Assembly (NCBI GenBank): GCA_045546895.1
Contig: JAZQDS010000040.1
Span: forward strand, 9,396 to 73,395
Length of the DNA: 64,000 nucleotides
Direction: 5' to 3'
Source of the DNA: Eubacteriales bacterium
GTDB lineage: Bacteria > Bacillota > Clostridia > Oscillospirales > QAKW01
Positions 41,596-63,369 of the stretch are shown piece by piece (positions within the stretch are counted from its first letter, which is position 1; every line of letters starts with the position of its first letter). The notes under the pieces are model-generated. The model had not been told where the DNA came from, made no database searches, and saw nothing but the letters and a program-made list of their open reading frames with translations. The translations under genes and the position numbers were made by a program.

Positions 41596-46468
<4,873 letters not shown>

Positions 46469-51063: not shown

Positions 51064-52218
51064 TTACTTGATGCAGCGAACCTTTAATACGCCATCAACA
51101 GCCTTCAAGGCCTCCTTAACACGATCGGAAACATCGTTATTACAATCGATAATCGTATAAGCATAGTCGCCTTTGGATTTGTTCAAAAGATTTTCGATGT
51201 TAACACCAACCGCGGAAACGATGGTGGAGAGGGTAGAGAGCATATTAGGAATGTTGCGATGGCAGATGCAGATCCGCAGCGCAGAAGCGAAGGGGGTAGA
51301 AACATTGGGGTAATTAACAGAATTGGTGATGTTACCATTTTCAAGATAGTCTCGAAGTTCCTTTGCAGCCATAACAGCGCAATTATCTTCGCTTTCAGGA
51401 GTAGAGGCCCCGAGATGGGGGATGGGAACAACGTTCTTCATTGCCAGCGTTTTTGCATTGGGAAAGTCGGTAACATATTTAGCAACCTTGCCGCTTTCGA
51501 GCGCTTCGGCGATATCTTCATCGTTTACCAGATCGGCGCGGGAAAGATTCAAGATGCGAACGCCGTCTTTCATGGTGGCGATGGTATCTTTGTTGACGCA
51601 ATGTCTGGTTTCATCGGTTAAGGGAGCATGGATGCAGATATAATCGCAAACGCTGAAGATTTCTTCGATGTTTGCGGCTTTGATAACATGATGGTTCAGG
51701 TTCCATGCGGATTGCAGGGAAATATAGGGATCATAGCCATAAACCTTCATGCCGAGATGCTGAGCAGCATTTGCAACTTGAACGCCGATGGCGCCAAGGC
51801 CGATAATACCGAGCTTTTTGCCCAAAATTTCAGGACCGACAAACTGGGATTTACCTTTCTCAACCTGTTTTGCAACATCATCACCTGAAAGGGTCTTTGC
51901 CCATTCGACACCGCCGATGATATCGCGGGAGGCCAGAAGCAGAGCGGCAATCGCCAATTCTTTAACTGCGTTTGCATTTGCGCCGGGAGTATTGAATACA
52001 ACGATACCTTTTTCGGCACAGGTGTCCAAAGGAATATTGTTTACACCCGCACCGGCTCTTGCGATGGCGTTCAGAGAGGCGGGAAACTCCATATCGTGGA
52101 GAGAGGCGCTGCGAACTAAAATGCCATCAGGGGCATCGCAGGTATCGCAGATTTCATAATTGGAATCAAAGCCTTCAAGGCCGATTTTTGCGATTTTATT
52201 CAGAGTTTGGATTTTCAT
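51064..52218 (-). CDS. serA: D-3-phosphoglycerate dehydrogenase (with C-terminal ACT domain)
   Basis: 384 aa with the NAD-binding motif GIIGLGAIG, a 2-hydroxyacid dehydrogenase core and a C-terminal ACT-like region. It is adjacent to serC. Confidence 0.9.
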   Translation of the reverse strand: MKIQTLNKIAKIGLEGFDSNYEICDTCDAPDGILVRSASLHDMEFPASLNAIARAGAGVNNIPLDTCAEKGIVVFNTPGANANAVKELAIAALLLASRDIIGGVEWAKTLSGDDVAKQVEKGKSQFVGPEILGKKLGIIGLGAIGVQVANAAQHLGMKVYGYDPYISLQSAWNLNHHVIKAANIEEIFSVCDYICIHAPLTDETRHCVNKDTIATMKDGVRILNLSRADLVNDEDIAEALESGKVAKYVTDFPNAKTLAMKNVVPIPHLGASTPESEDNCAVMAAKELRDYLENGNITNSVNYPNVSTPFASALRICICHRNIPNMLSTLSTIVSAVGVNIENLLNKSKGDYAYTIIDCNNDVSDRVKEALKAVDGVLKVRCIK

Positions 52219-52219
52219 T

Positions 52220-53299
52220 TTATTTATTTTCCTCTTCGAATTTCTTCATAAAGTTCACAAGCGCTTCAACGCCTTCATAGGGCATTGCATTATAAATGCT
52301 TGCGCGCATGCCGCCAACAGAACGATGGCCTTTGATGTTAACAAAACCATTTTTGGTGCATTCTGCAATGAATTTCTTATCCAGCTCATCGTTGCCGGTA
52401 ACAAAGGGAACGTTCATTAAAGAGCGGGAAGCGCCCATAACAGTGGGGTGGAACATTTCGGATTGATCCAGGAAATCATAGAGAAGAGCGGCCTTTTTCT
52501 TATTGTTTTCTTCCAGAACCTTGATGCCGCCGAGGTTTTCGATCCATTCCAAAACCAATTTCAGCATATAGATTGCATAGGTCGGAGGAGTATTAAACAT
52601 AGATGCATTTTCAGAATGGGTCTTATAAGCAAACATGGTGGGCGTAATCTCTTGGGGCTCGCCGATCAGGTCTTCGCGGATAATAACAACGGTAAGGCCT
52701 GCAGGACCCATATTCTTTTGGGCGCCGGCATAGATCATTCCGTATTTGCTGACATCAACTTCCTCGCTCAGGATGGAGGAAGACATATCGGCAATCAAAG
52801 GCACATTGCCGGTTTCAGGCAGCTTATAATACTTTGTACCATAGATAGTGTTATTGTAGCAAATATGGCAATAATCCGCGTCTTTATCGAAATCAAGGCC
52901 ATCCAACTCGGGAATATAGGAGAAGGTCTTATCTTCGCTGGAAGCAACCGCGCGGCAGTTCCCGTAGCGCGAACCTTCCTTAAATGCTTTCTTGGCCCAT
53001 TGACCTGTAATGATGTAATCTGCTTTTCCGTTTTTGGTCATCAAATTCAGGGGAACCATTGCAAATTGGCTGGAGGCGCCGCCCTGAAGGAAAAGGACTT
53101 TATAATTATCGGGGATGGAGAGTACTTTACGAAGTAAAGCTTCCGCAGATTCGATGATTGCGCCATATTCCTTTGAACGATGGCTCATCTCCATAACTGA
53201 TTGACCGGAAGTGCCATACTCGGTCATTTCGCTTGCGGCCTTTTCTAAAACTTCCAAAGGAAGCATGGAGGGACCTGCGGAAAAATTGTAAACTCTCAT
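52220..53299 (-). CDS. serC: Phosphoserine aminotransferase
   Basis: Start at MRVYNFSAGPSMLP, with AAAGGTG 7 nt upstream. The ORF-track start at 53308 is a GTG inside the RBS. Confidence 0.93.
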   Translation of the reverse strand: MRVYNFSAGPSMLPLEVLEKAASEMTEYGTSGQSVMEMSHRSKEYGAIIESAEALLRKVLSIPDNYKVLFLQGGASSQFAMVPLNLMTKNGKADYIITGQWAKKAFKEGSRYGNCRAVASSEDKTFSYIPELDGLDFDKDADYCHICYNNTIYGTKYYKLPETGNVPLIADMSSSILSEEVDVSKYGMIYAGAQKNMGPAGLTVVIIREDLIGEPQEITPTMFAYKTHSENASMFNTPPTYAIYMLKLVLEWIENLGGIKVLEENNKKKAALLYDFLDQSEMFHPTVMGASRSLMNVPFVTGNDELDKKFIAECTKNGFVNIKGHRSVGGMRASIYNAMPYEGVEALVNFMKKFEEENK

Positions 53300-53335
53300 T
53301 AAAAACACCTTTCTTTCAATAATTTATAATATATT

Positions 53336-53364
53336 ATTATAAATTAGCTATTTATAAAAGTCAA
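53336..53364 (-). promoter_or_regulatory. Sigma-A-like promoter for serC-serA
   Basis: On the minus strand: TTGACT (53364-53359), 17-nt spacer, TATAAT (53341-53336). It lies about 37 nt upstream of the serC ATG. Confidence 0.6.
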
Positions 53365-53387
53365 CTTCTTTTTCAAAAATATCATAC

Positions 53388-53416
53388 TTGCTTATAAAAA
53401 TATATTATGATATAAT
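53388..53416 (+). promoter_or_regulatory. Sigma-A-like promoter for the DRTGG/GHKL/HydS-like cassette
   Basis: TTGCTT (53388-53393), 17-nt spacer ending in TGa, TATAAT (53411-53416). Confidence 0.6.
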
Positions 53417-53461
53417 AATCAATGGAATATTATATATTTTCTCAATAAAAGGAGTAAAAAA

Positions 53462-53818
53462 ATGAAGATTTCCGAGGTAAAAGAATTATTGGATGCTGAT
53501 GTGCTTTGCTGCGAAGAGGGGTTGGCTTATGAAGCTAAAAGTGCCTGCGGCTCCGATATGATGAGTGATGTTCTTGCTTTTGTTAAGGATCAGGGCATTT
53601 TATTGACCGGCTTGGTCAATCTTCAAACGATTCGTACCGCTCAAATGATGGATATGAAATGCATTGTTTTTGTTCGCGGTAAGCGTCCGGATGAGTCAGT
53701 TGTTTCTTTGGCTGAAACCAATGGGATTACTTTGCTTGCAACAGATTTTCGAATGTATACTGCCTGTGGAATTCTCTATCATAACGGATTATTGAGCGAA
53801 GGGGTTGACAAAGTATGA
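53462..53818 (+). CDS. DRTGG-domain protein (copy 1)
   Basis: 118 aa. ..GSDMMSDVLAFVKDQGILLTGLVNLQTIRTAQMMDMKCIVFVRGKRPDESVV..A..NGITLLATDF.MY.ACG matches the small stand-alone DRTGG proteins I recall next to clostridial hydrogenase operons. Confidence 0.65.
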   Translation: MKISEVKELLDADVLCCEEGLAYEAKSACGSDMMSDVLAFVKDQGILLTGLVNLQTIRTAQMMDMKCIVFVRGKRPDESVVSLAETNGITLLATDFRMYTACGILYHNGLLSEGVDKV

Positions 53819-54237
53819 CAGAACCGATCGTATTAAAATATCGAGTTGATGGTGATGATTTCAGCATGGCTGGCGAAGCCTCCAGCGATGTAAAAAAAGT
53901 TTTGAAGCAGCTTGGATTTTCGCCTGATGTCATCCGCCGCGTTTCAATTTCCATGTATGAGGCGGAAATCAATATGGTAATTCATGCTGAGGGTGGAGAG
54001 ATTACTGTTGAAATTTTTCAAGACAATATTCATATTGTTCTTGCGGACCATGGTCCCGGCATAAAGGATGTTGAATTGGCGATGCAAGAAGGCTATTCTA
54101 CCGCACCGGAGGAGGTGCGGAATCTTGGCTTTGGCGCCGGTATGGGTTTACCGAATATAAAGCGTTACTCCGATAATCTGGCCATTGATACCGTTATCGG
54201 AAGCGGAACAACATTAACCATTGACATACATACTTGA
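53815..54237 (+). CDS. GHKL ATPase, anti-sigma-factor/Ser-Thr-kinase-like (RsbW/SpoIIAB size class)
   Basis: 140 aa with N-box EAEINMVIHA, G1 DHGPGI and G2 GFGAGMGLPN. No HisKA domain. 4-nt overlap with the upstream gene. Confidence 0.7.
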   Translation: MTEPIVLKYRVDGDDFSMAGEASSDVKKVLKQLGFSPDVIRRVSISMYEAEINMVIHAEGGEITVEIFQDNIHIVLADHGPGIKDVELAMQEGYSTAPEEVRNLGFGAGMGLPNIKRYSDNLAIDTVIGSGTTLTIDIHT

Positions 54238-54247
54238 GGTGATTAAT

Positions 54248-55504
54248 TTGGATTATTTCCATTCTGTTACATTAGACGCATCCCGATGTCGCGGATGTAC
54301 CACCTGCGTTAAACGTTGTCCAACCGAAGCAATTCGAGTAAAAGAAGGAAAGGCAACAATTATCAAGGAGCGCTGTATTGATTGCGGCGAATGTATTCGT
54401 GTTTGCCCGCATCGCGCTAAAAAGGCAGTTTACGATAGGCTGGATGCATTGGAAAAATTTGAATATAATGTTGCAATTCCCGCACCCGCATTATATGGAC
54501 AATTCAACAACCTTGATAATGCCGATTATGTATTAACAGGCTTGCTGGAGCTGGGATTTGATGATGTTTTTGAGGTATCAAGAGCGGCTGAGCTGGTTTC
54601 GGAATTTACCCGTAAGGAATTGGAAAACCCTGATCTGCCGCGCCCGCTGATTTCAACCGCCTGCCCTGCAATTGTGCGCTTAATTCGGGTTCGTTTTCCG
54701 AAGCTGATCCCGCACCTGCTTTCTCTTCGCGCGCCGATTGAAATTGCGGCAGAGATCGCCCGCAGGGAAGCGATTAGAAAGAGCGGCTTGCCCAGCGAAA
54801 AAATCGGCGTATTCTTTATCTCGCCATGTCCTGCCAAGGTTACTGCTGTTCGCCAGCCGTTGGGGACAGATACTACCTGTATAGATGGTGTTTTGGCTAT
54901 TTCCGATATTTATAAGCCGCTGCTTTCGAAAATGAATAAAATTACTCAGCCGAAGCCCCTTTGCGAAAGCGGGCTCACAGGAATTTCATGGGCTTATACC
55001 GGCGGTGAAGCAACCGCCTTGCTGCGTACAAAATATCTTGCGGCAGACGGGGTCGAGAATGTGCTGAAAATCCTTGAGGAAATCGAGGATGAAAAGCTGG
55101 AGGATCTTGATTTTGTTGAGCTCGGGGCTTGCGTTTCCGGCTGTGTTGGCGGCTGCCTTACGATCGAAAATCCTTATATTGCTCGGACGCGGGTTCGTCA
55201 GCTGCGTAAATATATGCCTGTTTCCGCGAATAAGATGAAGGATTTTGATCTCAAGCCCGAGGAATACCATTGGTATAATCCAATAGAATATGATCCGATT
55301 ATGCAGCTGGACTCCGATCTTGCTGTTGCGATGCAAAAAATGCAGAAAATACGCGAAATTGAAAGCGAACTACCGGGGATAGATTGCTCTGCCTGCGGCG
55401 CGCCGACCTGCCATGCCTTGGCGGTGGATGTCGTTAACGGAACAGCTAAGTTTTCCGATTGCTTGATCGTTTTAAAAAATCGTTTGAAGGATATTATGGA
55501 ATGA
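54248..55504 (+). CDS. HydS-like (putative sensory) [FeFe]-hydrogenase homologue: 2x[4Fe-4S] ferredoxin domain, H-cluster domain, C-terminal Cx2Cx4Cx16C motif, no PAS
   Basis: CRGCTTCVKRCP and CIDCGECIRVCP are followed by H-domain motifs ISTACPAIV (L1-like), ISPCPAKVTA (L2-like) and ELGACVSGCVGGC (L3-like). The C-terminus has CSACGAPTCH-x15-C. Start set at TTG 54248, which has GAGGTG 6 nt upstream. TTG 54221 is the alternative. Confidence 0.8.
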   Translation: MDYFHSVTLDASRCRGCTTCVKRCPTEAIRVKEGKATIIKERCIDCGECIRVCPHRAKKAVYDRLDALEKFEYNVAIPAPALYGQFNNLDNADYVLTGLLELGFDDVFEVSRAAELVSEFTRKELENPDLPRPLISTACPAIVRLIRVRFPKLIPHLLSLRAPIEIAAEIARREAIRKSGLPSEKIGVFFISPCPAKVTAVRQPLGTDTTCIDGVLAISDIYKPLLSKMNKITQPKPLCESGLTGISWAYTGGEATALLRTKYLAADGVENVLKILEEIEDEKLEDLDFVELGACVSGCVGGCLTIENPYIARTRVRQLRKYMPVSANKMKDFDLKPEEYHWYNPIEYDPIMQLDSDLAVAMQKMQKIREIESELPGIDCSACGAPTCHALAVDVVNGTAKFSDCLIVLKNRLKDIME

Positions 55505-55839
55505 TGAATGTTCATGAGCTTGCTGCTTCTTGCGGCTTTACCTATTTTAATGGCGATGACATTGATGGGCGCGATGTTTCCGGGGCCTATTGCTGCGATT
55601 TACTTTCCTGGGTAATCGGCCGAGCCGAGGCGGGCGATGCTTTGGTCACTGTTATGTCGAATGCTAATGTTATGGCGGTTGCAGTTATGGCGGATCTGCC
55701 CTGCGTTATTTTAAGCGAAGGGGTTCGTCCTGATGAAAATGCCCTGAATAAAGCAATTGAAAATGATATTATTGTATTATCTTCGGCCGCGCCGACTTAT
55801 CAGACGGCGGTAATGATTCATGAGGCGTTGAACGTGTGA
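55501..55839 (+). CDS. DRTGG-domain protein (copy 2)
   Basis: 112 aa. ..AYCCDLLSWVIGRAEAGDALVTVMSNANVMAVAVMADLPCVILSEGVRPDENAL..A.ENDIIVLSS parallels copy 1. ATGA overlap with the upstream gene. Confidence 0.6.
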   Translation: MMNVHELAASCGFTYFNGDDIDGRDVSGAYCCDLLSWVIGRAEAGDALVTVMSNANVMAVAVMADLPCVILSEGVRPDENALNKAIENDIIVLSSAAPTYQTAVMIHEALNV

Positions 55840-56564
55840 TGAAAGTTCACTACGACCTTCATATACATTCGGCACTTTCGCCCTGCGGGGATCCGGATAT
55901 GACGCCTAATAATATCGTAAATATGGCGATGATATGCGGGCTGGATATGATCGCTGTTGCCGATCATAACACGACAGGAAATGTTGAGGCTGTTATGGCG
56001 GTAGCTGAAAAAGCAGGGATAACTGTTGTTCCTGCAATGGAACTTGAAACGGCGGAAGAAATCCATGTTTTATGTCTATTTCCGGATCTTAAAGCCGCAC
56101 GACTTTTTGAAGAAGAAAAGGTGGCACCCGCGTTGCCACCCATTGAAAACCGAGCAGAAATCTTTGGCGAGCAATGGTTGATGGATCAGGAGGATCGGAT
56201 TATTGGCCATGAACCGCGGTACCTGATAAATGCAACATCAATCTCTATTGATGACATTGCTGTAATGATCCGGCCTTATGGAGGAGTTGCTGTTCCTGCT
56301 CATATCGATAAGCAGACCAAAAGCTTGGTGGGAAATTTTGGTATGGTAGGGGATTATCTGGGATTTACTACCTTTGAACTCTCCAAAAATGTTACCGATT
56401 ATTTTCTCGATGCCACGCCCGGCTTGGGAGCGCGCCCCTATCGTTATATTCATAATTCCGATGCTCATTATCTTCAGGATATCGGCGAGCATTCCGGGGA
56501 AAATCTTTTGGAATTGGAAGAAAATTCCGCCCATGCATTAATTCGTTTGTTTTGCCAGATTTAA
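55839..56564 (+). CDS. PHP-domain phosphoesterase
   Basis: YDLHIHSALSPCGD and IAVADHNT motifs, with further His/Asp ligands (PAHID, HNSDAH). Start at ATG 55839 or GTG 55836, overlapping the upstream stop. Confidence 0.8.
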   Translation: MKVHYDLHIHSALSPCGDPDMTPNNIVNMAMICGLDMIAVADHNTTGNVEAVMAVAEKAGITVVPAMELETAEEIHVLCLFPDLKAARLFEEEKVAPALPPIENRAEIFGEQWLMDQEDRIIGHEPRYLINATSISIDDIAVMIRPYGGVAVPAHIDKQTKSLVGNFGMVGDYLGFTTFELSKNVTDYFLDATPGLGARPYRYIHNSDAHYLQDIGEHSGENLLELEENSAHALIRLFCQI

Positions 56565-56600
56565 TTTGGTTTATTTTATTGAAAAAAATCGAAAAATGTG

Positions 56601-56629
56601 TGGAAATAAATTATTTCTTATGCTATAAT
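56601..56629 (+). promoter_or_regulatory. Sigma-A-like promoter (extended -10) for the hydrogenase structural operon
   Basis: Weak -35 TGGAAA (56601-56606), 17-nt spacer, TGcTATAAT (56621-56629). Confidence 0.5.
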
Positions 56630-56689
56630 ATAAATGTTTGTATTATGGAATTTACTGCTAAGCAGTTTCAATACTAAGGAGGACAAAAA

Positions 56690-57184
56690 ATGAGCAACAA
56701 AAGCCCCGTTCCTTTCAAGGGAACAAAAGAGCAAGAGAAGCAGCTCCTTGAAGTTATTGCAAAGCACAAAGATCAAGATGGTCCTTTGATGCCCGTACTT
56801 CAGGAAGCTCAGGAAATCTATGGTTATCTGCCCATCGAAGTGCAGAAAATCATTTCCGAAGGTCTGGATATCTCTTTAGAGCATATCTATGGAGTTGTTA
56901 CCTTCTATGCGCAGTTTTCGCTGGCCCCCAAGGGTGAGTATAAGATCGGCGTATGCTTGGGTACCGCCTGCTATGTTAAGGGATCCGGCGATATTTTGAA
57001 TAAGATCAAGGAAATCATCGGTATCGATGTTGGCGAATGCACCCCCGATGGTAAGTTCTCCCTTGAGGCTACCCGCTGCATCGGTGCTTGCGGTTTGGCG
57101 CCTGTTATGACAATCAACGAGGATGTTTACGGCCGCTTGGTTGTTGGTGATATTCCCGATATTTTGAAAAAGTATATGGACTAA
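56690..57184 (+). CDS. hydC: NuoE-like [2Fe-2S] subunit of bifurcating-type [FeFe]-hydrogenase (HydC)
   Basis: 164 aa. CLGTACYVKG ... CIGACGLAPVM is the thioredoxin-like 2Fe-2S motif. AAGGAGG RBS. Confidence 0.9.
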   Translation: MSNKSPVPFKGTKEQEKQLLEVIAKHKDQDGPLMPVLQEAQEIYGYLPIEVQKIISEGLDISLEHIYGVVTFYAQFSLAPKGEYKIGVCLGTACYVKGSGDILNKIKEIIGIDVGECTPDGKFSLEATRCIGACGLAPVMTINEDVYGRLVVGDIPDILKKYMD

Positions 57185-57190
57185 TTGTCC

Positions 57191-57742
57191 ATGAAAGAAT
57201 TATCACTTAATATTCTGGATATCACCTATAATTCCATCAAAGCGCAAGCAACGCGTATTGAAATATCAATAAGCGAATGCAAAGCGAAAAATTTGGTGGA
57301 AATAAAAATCACGGATGATGGCTGCGGAATGGACGAAAAATTTTTGCAGCAGGTAACAGATCCTTTTGTTACCACCCGAACAACCCGAAAAGTAGGTCTT
57401 GGAATTCCGCTTTTTAAGCAAAGCGCGGAGGATACCGGCGGTGAATTTATAATCGCATCAAAAGTAGGGGAGGGGACATCCGTTTATGCATCCTTTGGCC
57501 TTGATCATTTGGATCGTGCGCCGATCGGCGATATGAGCAGTACGCTGATCAGCTTGATTCAGGCAAATGATGGAATTCGCTTCATCTATCGCCATAAAAC
57601 AGATCGAGGAGAATTTATATTGGATACAGATGAGCTGCATGCTCAATTGGGGGATATTCCTCTTTCAGAGCCGGCTGTTTTGGGCTGGATATCTGAATAT
57701 ATTAATGAAAATCTGGACGAAATACAAGGAGGAAAAATATAA
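57191..57742 (+). CDS. Stand-alone GHKL (histidine-kinase-like) ATPase embedded in the hydrogenase operon
   Basis: N-box LNILDITYNSIKA, G1 DDGCGM, G2 GLGIPL..GG.F...S..GEGT. No HisKA, sensor or TM domain. It is followed by about 75 aa of unknown function. Start at ATG 57191 (TTG 57185 is the alternative). Confidence 0.7.
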   Translation: MKELSLNILDITYNSIKAQATRIEISISECKAKNLVEIKITDDGCGMDEKFLQQVTDPFVTTRTTRKVGLGIPLFKQSAEDTGGEFIIASKVGEGTSVYASFGLDHLDRAPIGDMSSTLISLIQANDGIRFIYRHKTDRGEFILDTDELHAQLGDIPLSEPAVLGWISEYINENLDEIQGGKI

Positions 57743-58116
57743 TGAAATCTTTAGCTGAATTGCAAGCAATTAAAGAAAAAATGCAGAACAAGGTAAATCT
57801 GCGTGCTTCCGATGATGAAAATACAATTCGCGTTGTTGTTGGTATGGCGACCTGCGGTATCGCTGCCGGCGCTCGCCCCGTTCTCAATGCTTTTTTGAAG
57901 GAAATTGAGGATCGCCGCCTTGCAAATGTTATCTGCACTCAGACCGGCTGTATCGGTATTTGCCAATATGAGCCTGTTGTTGAAATCCATACTCCCAATG
58001 GTGAGAAGGTTACTTATGTAAAGATGGATGAAGACAAGGTTGCAAAGGTCGTTACCGAGCATTTGGTTAACGGCAAGGTGGTTGAGGACTTTACCATCGG
58101 CGCTTATCAGAAATAA
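57742..58116 (+). CDS. Thioredoxin-like [2Fe-2S] ferredoxin-domain protein (HydD-like)
   Basis: 124 aa. ..VVVGMATCGIAAGA.. and ..QTGCIGICQYEPVV.. are 2Fe-2S Cys pairs. TAATG overlap with the upstream gene. Confidence 0.8.
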   Translation: MKSLAELQAIKEKMQNKVNLRASDDENTIRVVVGMATCGIAAGARPVLNAFLKEIEDRRLANVICTQTGCIGICQYEPVVEIHTPNGEKVTYVKMDEDKVAKVVTEHLVNGKVVEDFTIGAYQK

Positions 58117-58130
58117 GGGGGAAATAAAAA

Positions 58131-59924
58131 ATGATTAGAAACCATATTTTGATCTGTGGTGGTACCGGTTGTACCTCTTCCGGTTCCTTATCCATCATGG
58201 AGGCTTTTAATACTGAACTGGAAAAGAATAATCTTCAGGATGAAGTAAAGGTTGTTATGACCGGTTGCTTTGGTCTTTGCGCACTTGGTCCTATCGTTAT
58301 TGTTTATCCCGAAGGCTCCTTTTATAGCCGCATCGATGCTGATGCAGTTACTGAAATCGTTTCTGAACATATTATTAAGGGCCGTATTGTTAAGAAATAT
58401 CTTTACAGTGAAGTGGCTGCTATGGAAGAGCAGGGTGTTCATGCTTCCTTGAACGATACCAACTTCTATAAAAAGCAAAAGCGTGTTGCCCTGCGCAATT
58501 GCGGTGTTATCAATCCTGAATTGATCGATGAATATATCGCTTATGATGGTTATCAGGCATTGGGTAAGGTACTTACCGAGATGACTCCTGCTGATGTTAT
58601 TCAGTGCATTAAGGATTCCGGCTTGCGCGGTCGTGGCGGCGGCGGTTTCCCCACCGGCCTGAAATGGGATCTCGCATCCCGCACCAAGGCGGATGTTAAG
58701 TATGTTTGCTGCAACGCCGATGAAGGGGATCCGGGCGCATTTATGGATCGTTCCATCCTTGAGGGTGATCCCCATGCTGTTATCGAAGCTATGGCGATTG
58801 CTGCTTATGCGGTTGGCGCTTGCAAAGGCTTTGTTTACATTCGTGCGGAGTATCCTATCGCAGTTCGCCGCTTGCAGATTGCAATTGATCAGGCGCGTGA
58901 ATACGGGCTTTTGGGCGATAACATTTTTGATACCGGCTTTAAATTTGATATGGAAATCCGTTTGGGAGCAGGCGCATTCGTTTGCGGCGAGGAAACTGCT
59001 TTGATGACTTCTATCGAAGGCAATCGCGGCGAACCCCGTCCTCGTCCTCCTTTCCCCTCCGAGAAAGGTATTTTCGGCATTCCTACCATGAACTGCAATG
59101 TTGAAACCTATGCCAATATTCCTCAGATCCTGCTGAATGGTGCTGAATGGTTTAGCTCCATGGGTACTGAGAAATCCAAGGGTACCAAGGTATTTGCTTT
59201 GGGCGGTAAGATTACCAATACCGGTCTTGTTGAGATTCCTATGGGTACTACTCTGCGTGAGGTTATCGAGGATATCGGCGGTGGCATTCCCAACGGTAAG
59301 AAATTCAAGGCTGCGCAGACCGGCGGTCCTTCCGGCGGCTGTATCCCCGCATCCTTAATTGATACTCCGATCGACTATGATAATTTGATTGCTATTGGTT
59401 CTATGATGGGCTCCGGTGGTCTGATTGTTATGGACGAAGATAACTGCATGGTTGATATCGCCAAGTTCTTCTTGGAGTTTACGGTTGATGAATCCTGCGG
59501 TAAGTGTACTCCCTGCCGTATCGGTACCAAGAGAATGCTGGAGTATTTGGATAAGATTACTTCCGGCAAGGCTACTCTGAAGGATCTTGATGAATTGGAA
59601 GAGCTCTGCTATTATATCAAAGCAAACTCTCTTTGCGGTCTGGGCCAGACTGCACCGAACCCTGTTCTTTCCACCTTGCGTTATTTCAGAGATGAATATG
59701 AGGCTCACGTTGATGAGAAGCGTTGCCCCGCAGGCGTATGTAAGGATCTGATGCGTTATGAAATTACCGATGCATGTAAAGGCTGCACCCTTTGCGCTCG
59801 TAATTGCCCCGTTAATGCGATTGAAGGTACTGTTAAGAACCTGCATACCATCGATCAGGATAAGTGCATTAAGTGCGGCGTATGTATCAGCAAGTGTAAG
59901 TTTAATGCGATCGTACGGAAGTAA
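58131..59924 (+). CDS. hydB: NuoF-like FMN/NAD(H)-binding subunit of bifurcating-type [FeFe]-hydrogenase (HydB)
   Basis: 597 aa with N-terminal 2Fe-2S (CGGTGC..GCFGLCALGP), GRGGGGFPTG (FMN), ESCGKCTPCRIG (N3-type 4Fe-4S), and a C-terminal 2x[4Fe-4S] (CKGCTLCARNCP, CIKCGVCISKC). Confidence 0.93.
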   Translation: MIRNHILICGGTGCTSSGSLSIMEAFNTELEKNNLQDEVKVVMTGCFGLCALGPIVIVYPEGSFYSRIDADAVTEIVSEHIIKGRIVKKYLYSEVAAMEEQGVHASLNDTNFYKKQKRVALRNCGVINPELIDEYIAYDGYQALGKVLTEMTPADVIQCIKDSGLRGRGGGGFPTGLKWDLASRTKADVKYVCCNADEGDPGAFMDRSILEGDPHAVIEAMAIAAYAVGACKGFVYIRAEYPIAVRRLQIAIDQAREYGLLGDNIFDTGFKFDMEIRLGAGAFVCGEETALMTSIEGNRGEPRPRPPFPSEKGIFGIPTMNCNVETYANIPQILLNGAEWFSSMGTEKSKGTKVFALGGKITNTGLVEIPMGTTLREVIEDIGGGIPNGKKFKAAQTGGPSGGCIPASLIDTPIDYDNLIAIGSMMGSGGLIVMDEDNCMVDIAKFFLEFTVDESCGKCTPCRIGTKRMLEYLDKITSGKATLKDLDELEELCYYIKANSLCGLGQTAPNPVLSTLRYFRDEYEAHVDEKRCPAGVCKDLMRYEITDACKGCTLCARNCPVNAIEGTVKNLHTIDQDKCIKCGVCISKCKFNAIVRK

Positions 59925-59938
59925 GGGAGGATATTAAA

Positions 59939-61696
59939 ATGCAAATGGTTAATTTAAAAATTGATGGCACTCCGATCAGCGTACCTGCCGGTACTACGAT
60001 TTTGGAAGCTGCCAGACAACTGAATATTGATATTCCTACTCTCTGCTATATGAAAGAAATCAATGCAATCGGCGCTTGCCGTATCTGTGTTGTTGAAAAC
60101 AGAGTAAACGGCGCAGGTCGCTTGGTTGCAGGCTGCGTCTTCCCTGTTGCAGAGGGAATGGAAATTTATACCCATAGCCCTATGGTTTTGAAGGCGAGAA
60201 AGCAGACCTTGGAATTGATTCTTTCCAATCATGATAAGAAGTGCTTGTCTTGCGTTCGTTCCGGTGATTGCGAGCTGCAGCGTCTTTGCAACGAATATGG
60301 CGTTGATAAGGAAGATGCTTTTGACGGTGAAATGAATCATTATGATATTGATTATTCCGCGGCTCATATGTATCGCGATAATAATAAGTGCATTCTTTGC
60401 CGTCGTTGCGTTGCAGTTTGCGAAAAACTGCAGGGTGTGTCTGTTTTGGGCGCAAACGAAAGAGGTTTCGCTACTCATATCGGATCTGCCTTTGATGATG
60501 GGCTTGCGCTGACCTCCTGCGTATCTTGCGGTCAGTGTATTGTTGCTTGCCCCACCGGCGCATTGTCTGAAAAGGATGATACCGATAAGGTTTGGGAGGC
60601 CCTTGCTGATCCTACCAAGCATGTTGTTGTTCAGGTTGCTCCTTCTATCCGTGTTACTTTGGGTGAGGCATTTGATATGCCGATCGGCACCAATGTTGAA
60701 GGCAAGATGATTACCGCGCTGAAGAAATTGGGCTTTGATAAGGTATTTGACACTAATTTTGCTGCTGACCTTACCATTATGGAAGAATCTAATGAGTTAA
60801 TTGAGCGTGTTCAAAATGGCGGCGCGCTGCCGATGATCACTTCTTGCTCTCCCGGCTGGATCAAATTCTGCGAATATAATTTCCCTGATATGATCCCGCA
60901 TCTCTCTTCCTGCAAGTCTCCTCAGCAGATGTTTGGTGCTTTGGTTAAGACCTACTATGCCGAGAAGAATAATATTGATCCCAAGGACATTGTTAGCGTA
61001 TCTGTTATGCCCTGTACTGCTAAGAAGTTTGAGATCGGCCGCGATGATCAGGCTGCTGCCGGCGTTGCTGATGTTGATATTGCAATCACAACGCGTGAGC
61101 TTGCAAGAATGATCAAGAGAGCGGGCTTGTTCTTCACCAAGCTGGAAGATGGCGAATTTGATACCCCGCTGGGCATCGGCTCCGGTGCAGGCTTGATCTT
61201 CGGTGCTACCGGCGGTGTTATGGAGGCTGCGCTTCGTACTGCGGTTGAGAAGCTGACCGGCGAGGAACTCGGTAAGTTGGAATTTACCGATGTTCGCGGT
61301 ACTGAAGGCATCAAAGAAGCTGCTTATAAGGTTGGCGATCTTGAGGTTAAGGTTGCGGTTTGCTCCGGCCTCGCAAATGCGAAGGAGCTGCTTAAGAAGG
61401 TTCAGGCCGGCGAAGCGGATTATACCTTCATCGAGATCATGGGTTGCCCCGGCGGCTGCGTAAACGGCGGTGGCCAGCCCCATCAGCCCGCATCTGTTCG
61501 CAATTTTGAGGATCTGCGTGCTATGCGTGCAAAGGCTCTTTATGATACCGATGCTGCTATGGAACTGCGTAAGTCCCATGAAAATCCGATGATCAAGAAG
61601 CTCTACGATGAGTATCTTGAAAAGCCCGGTAGCCATAAGGCTCATAAATTGCTGCATACCTCTTATGTTGCAAGAAATCGTTTCGGCGATCAGTAA
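59939..61696 (+). CDS. hydA: [FeFe]-hydrogenase catalytic subunit (M3 architecture, HydA)
   Basis: 585 aa with N-terminal 2Fe-2S, a His-ligated 4Fe-4S region (HDKKCLSCVRSGDCELQ) and 2x[4Fe-4S]. H-cluster motifs are ITSCSPGW (variant L1), VMPCTAKKFE (L2) and EIMGCPGGCVNGGGQP (L3). Confidence 0.95.
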   Translation: MQMVNLKIDGTPISVPAGTTILEAARQLNIDIPTLCYMKEINAIGACRICVVENRVNGAGRLVAGCVFPVAEGMEIYTHSPMVLKARKQTLELILSNHDKKCLSCVRSGDCELQRLCNEYGVDKEDAFDGEMNHYDIDYSAAHMYRDNNKCILCRRCVAVCEKLQGVSVLGANERGFATHIGSAFDDGLALTSCVSCGQCIVACPTGALSEKDDTDKVWEALADPTKHVVVQVAPSIRVTLGEAFDMPIGTNVEGKMITALKKLGFDKVFDTNFAADLTIMEESNELIERVQNGGALPMITSCSPGWIKFCEYNFPDMIPHLSSCKSPQQMFGALVKTYYAEKNNIDPKDIVSVSVMPCTAKKFEIGRDDQAAAGVADVDIAITTRELARMIKRAGLFFTKLEDGEFDTPLGIGSGAGLIFGATGGVMEAALRTAVEKLTGEELGKLEFTDVRGTEGIKEAAYKVGDLEVKVAVCSGLANAKELLKKVQAGEADYTFIEIMGCPGGCVNGGGQPHQPASVRNFEDLRAMRAKALYDTDAAMELRKSHENPMIKKLYDEYLEKPGSHKAHKLLHTSYVARNRFGDQ

Positions 61697-61706
61697 TTGA
61701 TAGATA

Positions 61707-61750
61707 CCCCTGCAATGCTTGCATTGCAGGGGTTATTTACAGTTTTTTTA
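61707..61750 (+). terminator. Intrinsic terminator after hydA
   Basis: CCCCTGCAATGC-tt-GCATTGCAGGGG followed by a T-rich tail. Confidence 0.7.
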
Positions 61751-61827
61751 CGAAATAGATATTCACAAACTGTTGTTTATAGTGTATAATATATTCATTG
61801 TAAAATATATATGGAGGTTCTTATCCT

Positions 61828-63369
61828 ATGGGAAAAGGTCAAAGGGTGCGTGCAGGGCGTGCCGCAGAAAAAGAAGCTAAGAAGGTAGCTGCCGCTAAAG
61901 CTGCTCAAAAGCAAAAAGTAACCAGACTCATTGCGTTGGTTTCCGTTATCGTTGTTGCGATCGGTATTGTTGGCGGATTTGCATTTACCAATATTCGGAG
62001 TGCCGCTATCAAGCGTGGAGATCCGCAAAGAAAAACAATTGTTTTGGAATCGGATAATTATAAGGTCGATGCTGCAATGATGTCTTATTATTTCTATTCG
62101 CAGTATAATAACTTTGCCAATACCTATTCCTCTATGCTTTCATCGCTCGGTTTGGATACTTCCAAGAGCTTGAAATCGCAGGAATGTGCAATTCAAAGCG
62201 GCTTGACATGGTATGATTATTTTGCCGATATGGCCGGTGAGTCCGCAAAGGAATATCTGTATCTTGCTGAAAATGCAGTAAAAGCCGGCTTGAAGCTGGA
62301 TGATAAAGATCAGGAAAATATTGATAAAACCATTGATAGCTATGAAGAAGTTGCTAAAGAGCAAAAAATGAAATTGAAGGATTTCATTCCTGCTGCCTTC
62401 GGCACCGGTGTAAATGAAGGCGATGTTCGTAAATGTTTAGAGCTTGCAACAATTTCTGATAAGTATTATCAAAAGTTTTATGATGAGCTAAAATATACCG
62501 ATAAGGATATCGATGCTTTTTATAAGAAGAATATTGATACCTATCGTTATGTTGACTATTATTCCTATAGTGTAGCTGCTGAGGATACGGAGGATAAGGC
62601 AACCTATGCCGATGCCAAGAAGGCGGCTGAAAAGCTTGCTGCTGTAAGCAGCACAAAGGCCTTTGAAAATTGGGTGGCTGAGGATGTTGAGAGCAATGCC
62701 TCTATTACCAAGGATTATACCGAGAAGGATTTGGAAGAGGATATTGACGAAGCGGTTGATTCCGCAAAATATACCAATATGACCTTTACCGAAGGGAATA
62801 AGGCCTCCGAATGGTTGTTTGAAAAGGCAAAGGTTGGTGACACCTATATTGATGACGACGGCAAGGGTACCTATACGGTTTATTACTGCACCGCAACGCC
62901 TCATCGCGATGAGAGCCTTACCAGAACGATCCGAAATATCGTTTTAACCAACGAAAGTCATGAAGATAAAGAAACCTGCAAGAAAACAGCGGTAAATCTT
63001 TTGGCCGAAATGAAGAAGGCGGGCCTGACCGAGGAAACCTTCAATAAATATGCGCTTGAATACAGCGAGAATACCGCCAATTATACCGATGGCGGTCTTT
63101 GCGAAAACTATAAGCAGAGCGCTTTTGAGGAGCATATGGGCGAATGGGCATACGATGATGAGCGTAAGGCCGGCGATTTTGAGGTTGTTGAATATGATGA
63201 CGGCTATGCCCTTTGCTACTATATTGGTGAAGGGATTGCTGCTTGGAAATCCGATTGTATTGCGGATAAAAAAGCGGAAGACTATGCAGCCGCTGCTGAG
63301 AAATGGAAAAAAGATATTGCCGTTACTGAAAACGAAAATGGCTATAAGAAAATTCCCGATATTCGCTGA
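61828..63369 (+). CDS. Membrane-anchored PrsA/SurA-like protein with a degenerate parvulin-type PPIase-like C-terminal domain
   Basis: 513 aa with a basic N-terminus plus a single TM (LIALVSVIVVAIGIVGGFAF). The C-terminal ..IRNIVLTNE..LLAEMKKAGLTEETFNKYALEYSENT..DGGL..EHMGEWAY...GDFEVVEYDDGYALCYY has parvulin-like spacing. The assignment is tentative. Confidence 0.45.
   Translation: MGKGQRVRAGRAAEKEAKKVAAAKAAQKQKVTRLIALVSVIVVAIGIVGGFAFTNIRSAAIKRGDPQRKTIVLESDNYKVDAAMMSYYFYSQYNNFANTYSSMLSSLGLDTSKSLKSQECAIQSGLTWYDYFADMAGESAKEYLYLAENAVKAGLKLDDKDQENIDKTIDSYEEVAKEQKMKLKDFIPAAFGTGVNEGDVRKCLELATISDKYYQKFYDELKYTDKDIDAFYKKNIDTYRYVDYYSYSVAAEDTEDKATYADAKKAAEKLAAVSSTKAFENWVAEDVESNASITKDYTEKDLEEDIDEAVDSAKYTNMTFTEGNKASEWLFEKAKVGDTYIDDDGKGTYTVYYCTATPHRDESLTRTIRNIVLTNESHEDKETCKKTAVNLLAEMKKAGLTEETFNKYALEYSENTANYTDGGLCENYKQSAFEEHMGEWAYDDERKAGDFEVVEYDDGYALCYYIGEGIAAWKSDCIADKKAEDYAAAAEKWKKDIAVTENENGYKKIPDIR

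Follow-up and report, generated by a model that had tools for sequence, protein, structure and literature searches.

What is an [FeFe]-hydrogenase for when it keeps the site of its catalytic cofactor, has lost the proton relay of the Group A enzymes and ends without a PAS domain? This question is raised by hydS (54248-55504, + strand), a gene in a stretch of 64,000 nucleotides of Eubacteriales bacterium DNA (assembly GCA_045546895.1, contig JAZQDS010000040.1, positions 9,396 to 73,395), hereafter the window. A first reading of this DNA from its sequence only had proposed that the protein is a slow, H2-binding sensor that signals through partner proteins. Here we place HydS, with very little doubt, in Group D (M2e) of the [FeFe]-hydrogenases, as an orthologue of TamHydS from Thermoanaerobacter mathranii, and we think it somewhat more likely than not that it serves H2 sensing or regulation, in a scheme developed below in which the H2-dependent state of this Group D enzyme would be read by the products of four genes in the same cassette, which in turn would adjust the bifurcating hydrogenase HydABC.

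HydS and its place among the [FeFe]-hydrogenases

The gene likely starts at the TTG at 54248, which has GAGGTG in front of it; the open reading frame track opens earlier, at 54221, and our residue numbers, counted from TTG 54248, are those of the sequence-only reading minus 9. The product is identical, letter for letter, to a 418-residue NCBI protein (P0001) whose database name is only "4Fe-4S binding protein". Its domains and motifs, which as judged from the protein sequence are far beyond chance, are as follows.

54248-55504, + strand: hydS, very probably a Group D (M2e) [FeFe]-hydrogenase, 418 residues, 50% identical to TamHydS along its whole length
54287-54409, + strand: two ferredoxin-type CxxCxxCxxxCP motifs of the N-terminal F-domain, C14-P25 and C43-P54 (Pfam Fer4, about 1e-10)
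54470-55153, + strand: H-domain, residues 75-302 (Pfam Fe_hyd_lg_C, E = 1e-28)
54653-54667, + strand: L1-like motif S136-T-A138-C139-P140, with A138 at the position of CpI C299 and C139 at that of the cubane ligand CpI C300
54821-54847, + strand: L2-like motif S192-P-C194-P-A-K197-V-T-A200, with S192, C194 and K197 at the positions of CpI M353, C355 and K358
54998-55120, + strand: candidate residues of the alternative Group D proton path, T251, E254, D267 and E291, mapped from S249, E252, D265 and E289 of TamHydS
55124-55144, + strand: L3-like motif G293-A-C295-V-S-G-C299, with C295 and C299 at the positions of CpI C499 and C503 and G293 at the variable position of CpI M497
55385-55462, + strand: predicted C-terminal [4Fe-4S] site C380-x2-C383-x4-C388-x16-C405, flanked by D379 and D404 (PF04060)

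The assignment to Group D follows from the identity to TamHydS, the presence of Group D signature residues, a shared gene order and a structural model that matches [FeFe]-hydrogenases only. BLASTP aligns HydS with TamHydS from end to end with 50% identity, 73% positives and three gaps (E = 1e-158), against 23% identity to the Group A HydA encoded in the same window, and it is this difference in identity that stands in for phylogeny in the placement. The TamHydS sequence used for the comparison was rebuilt from the codon-optimised coding sequence in the supplement of PMC13104023, by stitching frames across indels introduced in reading the PDF; the result has 435 residues, as the paper states, and agrees with 20/20 published residue labels.

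The group to which HydS is assigned was named by 2010-2012, and TamHydS has been studied biochemically and spectroscopically since 2019-2020. M2e/Group D enzymes are PAS-less, have lost the relay Cys, carry a C-terminal Cx2Cx4Cx16C motif and have been proposed to be sensory (PMC8163306; PMC3561251). Carere et al. 2012 listed Cthe_0335, TTE0887 and Athe_1292 as "D M2e", described M2e enzymes as PAS-less proteins whose genes lie close to those of protein kinases and upstream of those for trimeric bifurcating hydrogenases, and classed them as sensory (PMC3561251). Land et al. 2020 gave the T. mathranii enzyme its name and described the replacement of M353 by Ser/Thr in M2e (PMC8163306), Cabotaje et al. 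2023 proposed a Group D-specific proton path E252-E289-S249-D265 (PMC10407848), and Schumann et al. 2026 reported a [4Fe-4S] cluster at the C-terminal site (C379...C404) of TamHydS, which is not reduced by H2 (PMC13104023). HydS from the window has the four Cys and the Lys of the H-cluster site, two N-terminal Fer4 motifs, the C-terminal Cx2Cx4Cx16C motif and no PAS domain, and in addition shows the replacement of the relay Cys by Ala and of M353 by Ser, a path of two Glu, one Asp and a hydroxyl residue, an adjoining kinase-like gene and a bifurcating Group A hydrogenase downstream.

The likeness to TamHydS extends to details. Domain order and length (418 versus 435 residues) are nearly the same, A138 stands for A137, Ser is found at the M353 position, and E254, E291, D267 and T251 take the places of E252, E289, D265 and S249. 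At the C-terminal site D379-C380 and D404-C405 correspond to D378-C379 and D403-C404; these Asp residues beside the first and last Cys ligands are a Group D signature and are conserved in the 92 homologues that we compared. R30, K35, R42 and K58 are identical in the two proteins, and D393 is kept as D394. The main differences are that the M497 position is Gly here and Leu in TamHydS, that a proposed interdomain contact of TamHydS, E392, has become V393, that K123 and N127 stand where TamHydS has E122 and K126 as remnants of CpI E282/R286, and that the tail at the C terminus is shorter by 17 residues. The hosts also differ, the window belonging to a mesophilic, gut-type lineage of uncultured Clostridia and not to a thermophile.

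Two other groups of [FeFe]-hydrogenases offer a useful contrast. Group C enzymes (M2f; TmHydS of Thermotoga maritima and R. albus HydS) share with HydS the two N-terminal [4Fe-4S] motifs, the replacement of the relay Cys by Ala, the C-terminal Cx2Cx4Cx16C motif and proximity to genes for bifurcating hydrogenases. However, in Group C the C-terminal cluster is followed by a PAS domain, the M353 position is Gly (PMC8163306) and the E252/D265/S249 path is missing (PMC10407848), whereas HydS ends at residue 418, 13 residues past C405, with no Pfam match to a PAS domain; membership of Group C was rejected on this ground. With Group A (CpI and the HydA of the window) HydS shares the H-domain fold and the four Cys and Lys around the H-cluster, but it has lost the equivalents of C299 and S319 and has gained an extra RnfB-type C-terminal cluster site. 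This last region (PF04060 "FeS" domain, residues 375-406, E = 1e-11) resembles the N-terminal domain of RnfB and the large subunit of CFeSP, the C-terminal 40 residues of HydS aligning Cys for Cys with the C-x2-C-x4-C-x16-C of their solved [4Fe-4S] sites; unlike in those proteins, the domain is fused to the C terminus of a hydrogenase H-domain. By Pfam, HydS has neither an Fe_hyd_SSU-like segment at its C terminus nor 2Fe-2S or NuoG-type domains at its N terminus.

At the H-cluster site, the correspondences come from three alignments, namely HMMER against T. kivui HydA1 and DdH, BLASTP against the HydA of the window, and a profile alignment (hhalign) of 53 homologues against CpI residues 223-364. 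All three agree that C139, C194, C295, C299 and K197 are equivalent to CpI C300, C355, C499, C503 and K358, the cubane ligands and the Lys that contacts a CN ligand. Conservation was counted in 92 homologues, 80 of them from species genomes and 12 from metagenome loci, the denominators being the sequences that cover a position. A138 and C139 are identical in 90/90, C194, K197, C295 and C299 each in 92/92, and all eight Cys of the N-terminal ferredoxin motifs are kept in 89/89. An AlphaFold2 model built with the 53 homologues has a mean predicted local distance difference test score (pLDDT) of 84.9 and a predicted template modelling score (pTM) of 0.83, with pLDDT below 50 only at residues 300-321. 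A Foldseek search of the PDB with this model gave [FeFe]-hydrogenases exclusively among its top 50 matches (query-normalised TM-scores 0.58-0.68); these matches cover HydS in part, because the structures lack the C-terminal domain. Neither Group C nor Group D is represented by a structure in the PDB results of Foldseek or HMMER. An extra Cys, C303, the third of "GCVGGC", lies four residues past the bridging Cys in the low-confidence stretch of the model from residue 300 to 321; it occurs in 8/92 homologues and is not a family trait.

The sequence-only reading had placed the three motifs of the H-cluster site at S-T-A147-C148-P, P-C203-P-A-K206-V-T-A209 and G-A-C304-V-S-G-C308, against the canonical MPCTAKKFE and MGCPGGCVNGGGQP of the HydA of the window, and each is where it was put: the first, exact in its positions, is A138-C139, the second C194/K197/A200 and the third C295/C299, and both canonical motifs are present in HydA. 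Its claims that the cubane Cys and the CN-contacting Lys are retained and that the relay Cys has become Ala (A138, opposite CpI C299) hold across the family. It was equally right about the two N-terminal CxxCxxCxxxCP motifs, which start at C14 and C43, about the absence of a PAS domain, about the C-terminal site—C389/C392/C397/C414, now C380/C383/C388/C405, with its DNA range of 55385-55462 exact and 13 residues left after the last Cys—and about the identity of the spacing with that of Thermotoga HydS, since Group C shares this C-terminal site. It had named, as what would overturn it, Cys residues that fail to superimpose on H-cluster ligands; the profile alignment with CpI and the exclusively [FeFe]-hydrogenase matches of the model speak for their being in place.

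These observations bear on one alternative, in which HydS would be a Nar1/NARF-like Fe-S protein that carries no [2Fe] subcluster and acts as a sensor of redox or Fe-S status or as a scaffold. HydS does fall short of the curated cut-offs of all NCBIfam hydrogenase models (145 bits against a required 450 for the best-scoring one, TIGR04105), its database name is noncommittal, and no hydE, hydF or hydG maturase gene is found in the window, a radical-SAM gene at 41596-43044 having been considered as HydG and rejected as HemZ. Yet TamHydS, 50% identical to HydS, takes up [2Fe]adt spontaneously, shows the states of the H-cluster in electron paramagnetic resonance and Fourier-transform infrared spectra and turns over H2 (PMC8163306), the ligand Cys, K197 and the pocket Ser/Thr are invariant, and an H-cluster-dependent HydA is encoded in the same operon, which implies that the cell makes the cofactor. 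On the strength of the identity to an H-cluster-binding enzyme and of the invariant pocket residues we rejected this reading, together with that of a generic ferredoxin, and grant it hardly any probability.

The proton path is where HydS departs from the Group A enzymes. The canonical Group A pathway runs past the relay Cys, C299 in CpI, through E279, S319, E282 and R286. In HydS no such intact pathway and no canonical TSCCP were found: L1 reads STACP, and in the profile alignment CpI C299, S319 and M353 are replaced by A138, L158 and S192. The helix that carries E279, E282 and R286 aligns ambiguously, hhalign pairing E119 and the invariant R122 with E279 and E282, while the published model of TamHydS equates CpI E282/R286 with TamHydS E122/K126 (PMC10407848), which our pairwise alignment matches to K123/N127; under either alignment the equivalents of C299 and S319 are lost, and it is at C299 that the Group A pathway begins (PMC10407848). 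The sequence-only reading had concluded that the proton-transfer pathway is gone. This stands for the Group A relay but may not stand for proton transfer as a whole, the residues of the proposed Group D replacement path being conserved: E254, D267 and E291 occur in 92/92 homologues and position 251 is Ser or Thr in 84/92 (S 78, T 6). A Glu/Asp path through E254, E291 and D267 with T251 may thus substitute for the broken relay. Position 192 is always a hydroxyl residue (S 50, T 42), and position 293 is variable (N 77, L 10, S 3, G 2), the Gly of HydS being rare (2/92), with Asn in most relatives and Leu in the Thermoanaerobacter type. The same reading had also counted the Ala at the Glu of the KxxE motif as a lost relay residue; this is true of the present sequence (A200, CpI E361), but across the family the position varies (A 38, D 18, E 17, S 13, Y 6). 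To our knowledge, this Glu is not part of the canonical proton pathway.

HydS is not a new hydrogenase but an ordinary member of a family that is already described and widespread. A protein search gave at least 8000 matches at E <= 0.001, and among the matches listed 120/120 share the architecture of HydS, have 417-454 residues and carry no PAS Pfam entry. At least 581 relatives were found in species-representative genomes, from 600 pattern matches listed. The closest HydS among the matches listed is 81% identical and comes from a metagenome-assembled genome of Clostridia from roe-deer colon, the others being from Oscillospiraceae, Acutalibacteraceae and Ruminococcaceae.

A conserved cassette and its link to hydABC

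hydS lies in a cluster of ten genes that spans 53462-61696 on the + strand. Besides hydS itself, the cluster consists of the following.

53462-53818, + strand: DRTGG-domain protein 1, 118 residues (Pfam DRTGG, E = 8e-7), the first gene of the cassette
53815-54237, + strand: SpoIIAB/RsbW-like serine-kinase/anti-sigma-type ATPase, 140 residues (HATPase_c_2)
55501-55839, + strand: DRTGG-domain protein 2, 112 residues from its ATG, overlapping the hydS stop as ATGA
55836-56564, + strand: PHP-family metal phosphoesterase, TrpH/YciV-like, 242 residues, with a GTG start that overlaps the upstream stop
56690-57184, + strand: hydC, NuoE-like [2Fe-2S] subunit (family searches)
57185-57742, + strand: orphan histidine-kinase-like ATPase, 185 residues, inside the hydABC cluster (family searches)
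57742-58116, + strand: small [2Fe-2S] ferredoxin-like protein, 124 residues (fdxn_Clost, 5e-12, below cut-off)
58131-59924, + strand: hydB, NuoF-like FMN/NAD subunit (family searches)
59939-61696, + strand: hydA, Group A bifurcating-type [FeFe]-hydrogenase (NCBIfam NF040763, 907 bits against a cut-off of 765)

The first five genes of the cluster, hydS included (53462-56564), form a tight cassette in which all junctions are 4-nucleotide overlaps, as between the stop of the first DRTGG gene and the next start, or a 10-nucleotide gap, which points to translational coupling. The cassette is separated from hydC by 125 nucleotides. A promoter-like site at 56601-56629 in this gap is merely a consensus match, and in a scan of 53200-62000 the counts of promoters and terminators were not above those in shuffled sequence.

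The composition of the cassette is strongly conserved. The first DRTGG gene is upstream of hydS in 78/80 loci, the SpoIIAB-like ATPase and the second DRTGG gene are each kept in 78/80 and the PHP gene in 77/80, and all four are on the same strand and within 3 kb of hydS in 71 of the 73 loci with enough flanking sequence. The ATPase scores 1.6e-14 with TIGR01925, at 53.9 bits well below the cut-off of 135, and matches SpoIIAB structures at 3e-7; it is best described as a relative of SpoIIAB/RsbW by fold and sequence, not as a demonstrated member, and domain searches found no STAS or sigma gene beside it in the cluster. The PHP protein is nearest to the TrpH/YciV type, which includes a 3',5'-nucleoside bisphosphate phosphatase and RNase AM (PDB 3e0f, 7ug9 and 2yb1). 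Its sequence hints at a nucleotide or RNA substrate, a phosphoprotein being possible as well.

The link to hydABC is looser. Among 36 fully flanked loci, only 19 encode HydABC within 8 kb of hydS; in 11 of these hydABC lies downstream on the strand of hydS, in 7 it is upstream in divergent orientation, and 1 has another arrangement. The cassette is thus more tightly conserved than its linkage to hydABC (71/73 versus 19/36). Where the linkage exists it can be complete: loci with a HydS 69-96% identical to TamHydS carry ten genes in the order of the window (DRTGG, SpoIIAB-like, HydS, DRTGG, PHP, HydC, histidine-kinase-like ATPase, ferredoxin, HydB, HydA), and the window locus is thus syntenic with that of the characterised enzyme. 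C. thermocellum (Cthe_0333-0342) and C. bescii (Athe_1290-1299) also have this cluster. The histidine-kinase-like ATPase gene accompanies hydC, hydB and hydA in 47 loci and the small ferredoxin gene is kept in 46. This ATPase, between hydC and the ferredoxin, consists of the ATPase domain alone, with no DHp/His domain detected, and could be a second link of the signalling to the bifurcating enzyme.

The same distribution bears on the idea that HydS is an extra, loosely bound subunit of HydABC that tunes bifurcation by direct electron exchange, in which case no signalling cascade would be involved. The genes hydS and hydABC do share a cluster, both in the window and in roughly half of the relatives, and the three accessory clusters of HydS could dock to HydA or HydB. 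However, no subunits other than A, B and C are present in the HydABC complexes solved from T. kivui, A. woodii and T. maritima, and the cassette is not beside hydABC in 17 of the 36 loci, and divergently oriented in 7. Because of these 17 loci, the tightest partners of hydS are the kinase-like, DRTGG and PHP genes, and we regard a role as HydABC subunit as very unlikely.

The flanks of the cluster add to this picture. Upstream lie serA-like (2-hydroxyacid dehydrogenase) and serC-like (class V aminotransferase) genes (51064-53308, - strand), and downstream a gene for a PpiC-type isomerase. In a relative where hydABC does not adjoin the cassette (L006), serA/serC-like genes are likewise upstream of the cassette (L006 4664-6954), from which we conclude that the cassette stayed put while hydABC moved. 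The flanks of L006 contain only these serA/serC-like neighbours, with nothing pointing to a regulatory target.

Sensing or turnover of H2

How might such a protein work? TamHydS has a Michaelis constant for H2 of about 0.1 mM, is a very slow catalyst that works in both directions and with an overpotential, and stabilises the reduced state of the H-cluster (PMC8163306; PMC10407848); a change of its secondary structure upon exposure to H2 has been reported. By analogy, HydS would bind a normal H-cluster, react with H2 at fairly high affinity and turn over very slowly both ways, stabilising a reduced state of the cofactor and changing its secondary structure when H2 is present. Gene context suggests that this H2-dependent state would be read out by the four co-translated partners—the SpoIIAB/RsbW-like ATPase, the two DRTGG proteins and the PHP phosphoesterase—and that these would adjust the expression or the activity of the adjacent bifurcating HydABC to the H2 level. 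Signalling through partner proteins, as the sequence-only reading had supposed, is reasonable in view of the conserved kinase-like neighbours, and the balance tips modestly towards H2 sensing or regulation as the physiological role. The related claim of that reading, that HydS is a sensor rather than a catalyst, agrees with the published proposal for Group D/M2e; it is nevertheless still a hypothesis, and TamHydS does turn over H2, slowly, in both directions. Even for TamHydS a sensory role is putative.

Several points weigh against this scheme. TamHydS is a real, though slow, bidirectional catalyst (PMC10407848), and the potential of its C-terminal cluster is too low for reduction by H2 (PMC13104023), which removes one obvious signalling route. 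Group D was called "functionally undefined" in a 2024 survey (PMC11216029), and H2 sensing by any Group D enzyme lacks physiological support. Finally, the locus itself brings difficulties: the cassette has no DNA-binding protein, sigma factor or STAS-type antagonist, hydABC adjoins it in only about half of the loci, and the window holds no maturase genes.

Much of this evidence could be read in favour of HydS as a working metabolic hydrogenase that is slow or activated by a partner in vivo, with the Group D path supplying protons and the three accessory clusters linking it to a redox partner. TamHydS evolves and oxidises H2, and mutation of E252 or E289 lowers both activities (PMC10407848), while the equivalents of these two residues are invariant in the HydS family; the indifference of the C-terminal cluster to H2 (PMC13104023) and the undefined status of the group (PMC11216029) also speak for it. 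Against this, TamHydS has a specific activity of about 0.1 umol H2 per mg per min, compared with Group A turnover of 10^4-10^5 per s (PMC10407848), hydS is nearly always grouped with the SpoIIAB-like kinase, two DRTGG and PHP genes, which are not redox partners, and the cluster itself includes a gene for a high-activity HydA. We therefore think a metabolic role unlikely, if less so than the other two alternatives, and none of the three is favoured.

If HydS is indeed a sensor read by its partners, the five-gene cassette might by itself be a self-contained, uncharacterised H2-responsive signalling module of a kind resembling partner switching, a suggestion that goes further and that we make tentatively, as it is more doubtful than probable. 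In such a module HydS would replace the PAS-based input of Group C, the DRTGG proteins would be substrates or antagonists of the kinase, and the PHP enzyme would be a phosphoesterase that resets the system or a hydrolase of a nucleotide signal. A full-text literature search for DRTGG, PHP and hydrogenase together gave no match, and the two co-mentions of DRTGG and hydrogenase that it returned concern unrelated subjects. For TamHydS, neither the native complex nor the interaction partners are known, according to its authors (PMC13104023).

The neighbouring HydA and the family at large

The HydA of the window has a feature of its own at the H-cluster. Its L1 motif is TSCSPGW (residues 301-307, 60839-60859), with Ser at the position of the cubane ligand CpI C300, whereas T. 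kivui HydA1 has TSCCP. TSCSPGW is found in 39/39 HydA orthologues adjoining hydS (35 genome loci and 4 of the Thermoanaerobacter type), and A. woodii HydA1 has the same natural Ser ligand (Ser301) with no apparent effect on the spectra of the H-cluster (PMC10021017). The Ser is thus a variant already described rather than an error of sequencing. It accompanies Group D hydS in every locus examined, HydA having been sampled only from beside hydS, and a full-text literature search for the motif "TSCSP" returned nothing relevant. The rest of the window (1-53300 and 61828-63369) looks like an ordinary housekeeping part of a chromosome of spore-forming Clostridia, with genes for LeuRS, a P-type ATPase, GerA, Lon, SipL, RecJ, RelA, HemZ, LigA, GatB, NusG and the ribosomal proteins L1, L10 and L12.

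As for the hydrogenase itself, the window adds one more orthologue from uncultured gut Clostridia to a family that comparative genomics had listed by 2012. The cassette is of wider interest. How a PAS-less HydS would relay an H2 signal is the question of this field, and the genes that travel with hydS name concrete candidates for that relay: a SpoIIAB-like kinase, two DRTGG proteins and a PHP phosphoesterase.

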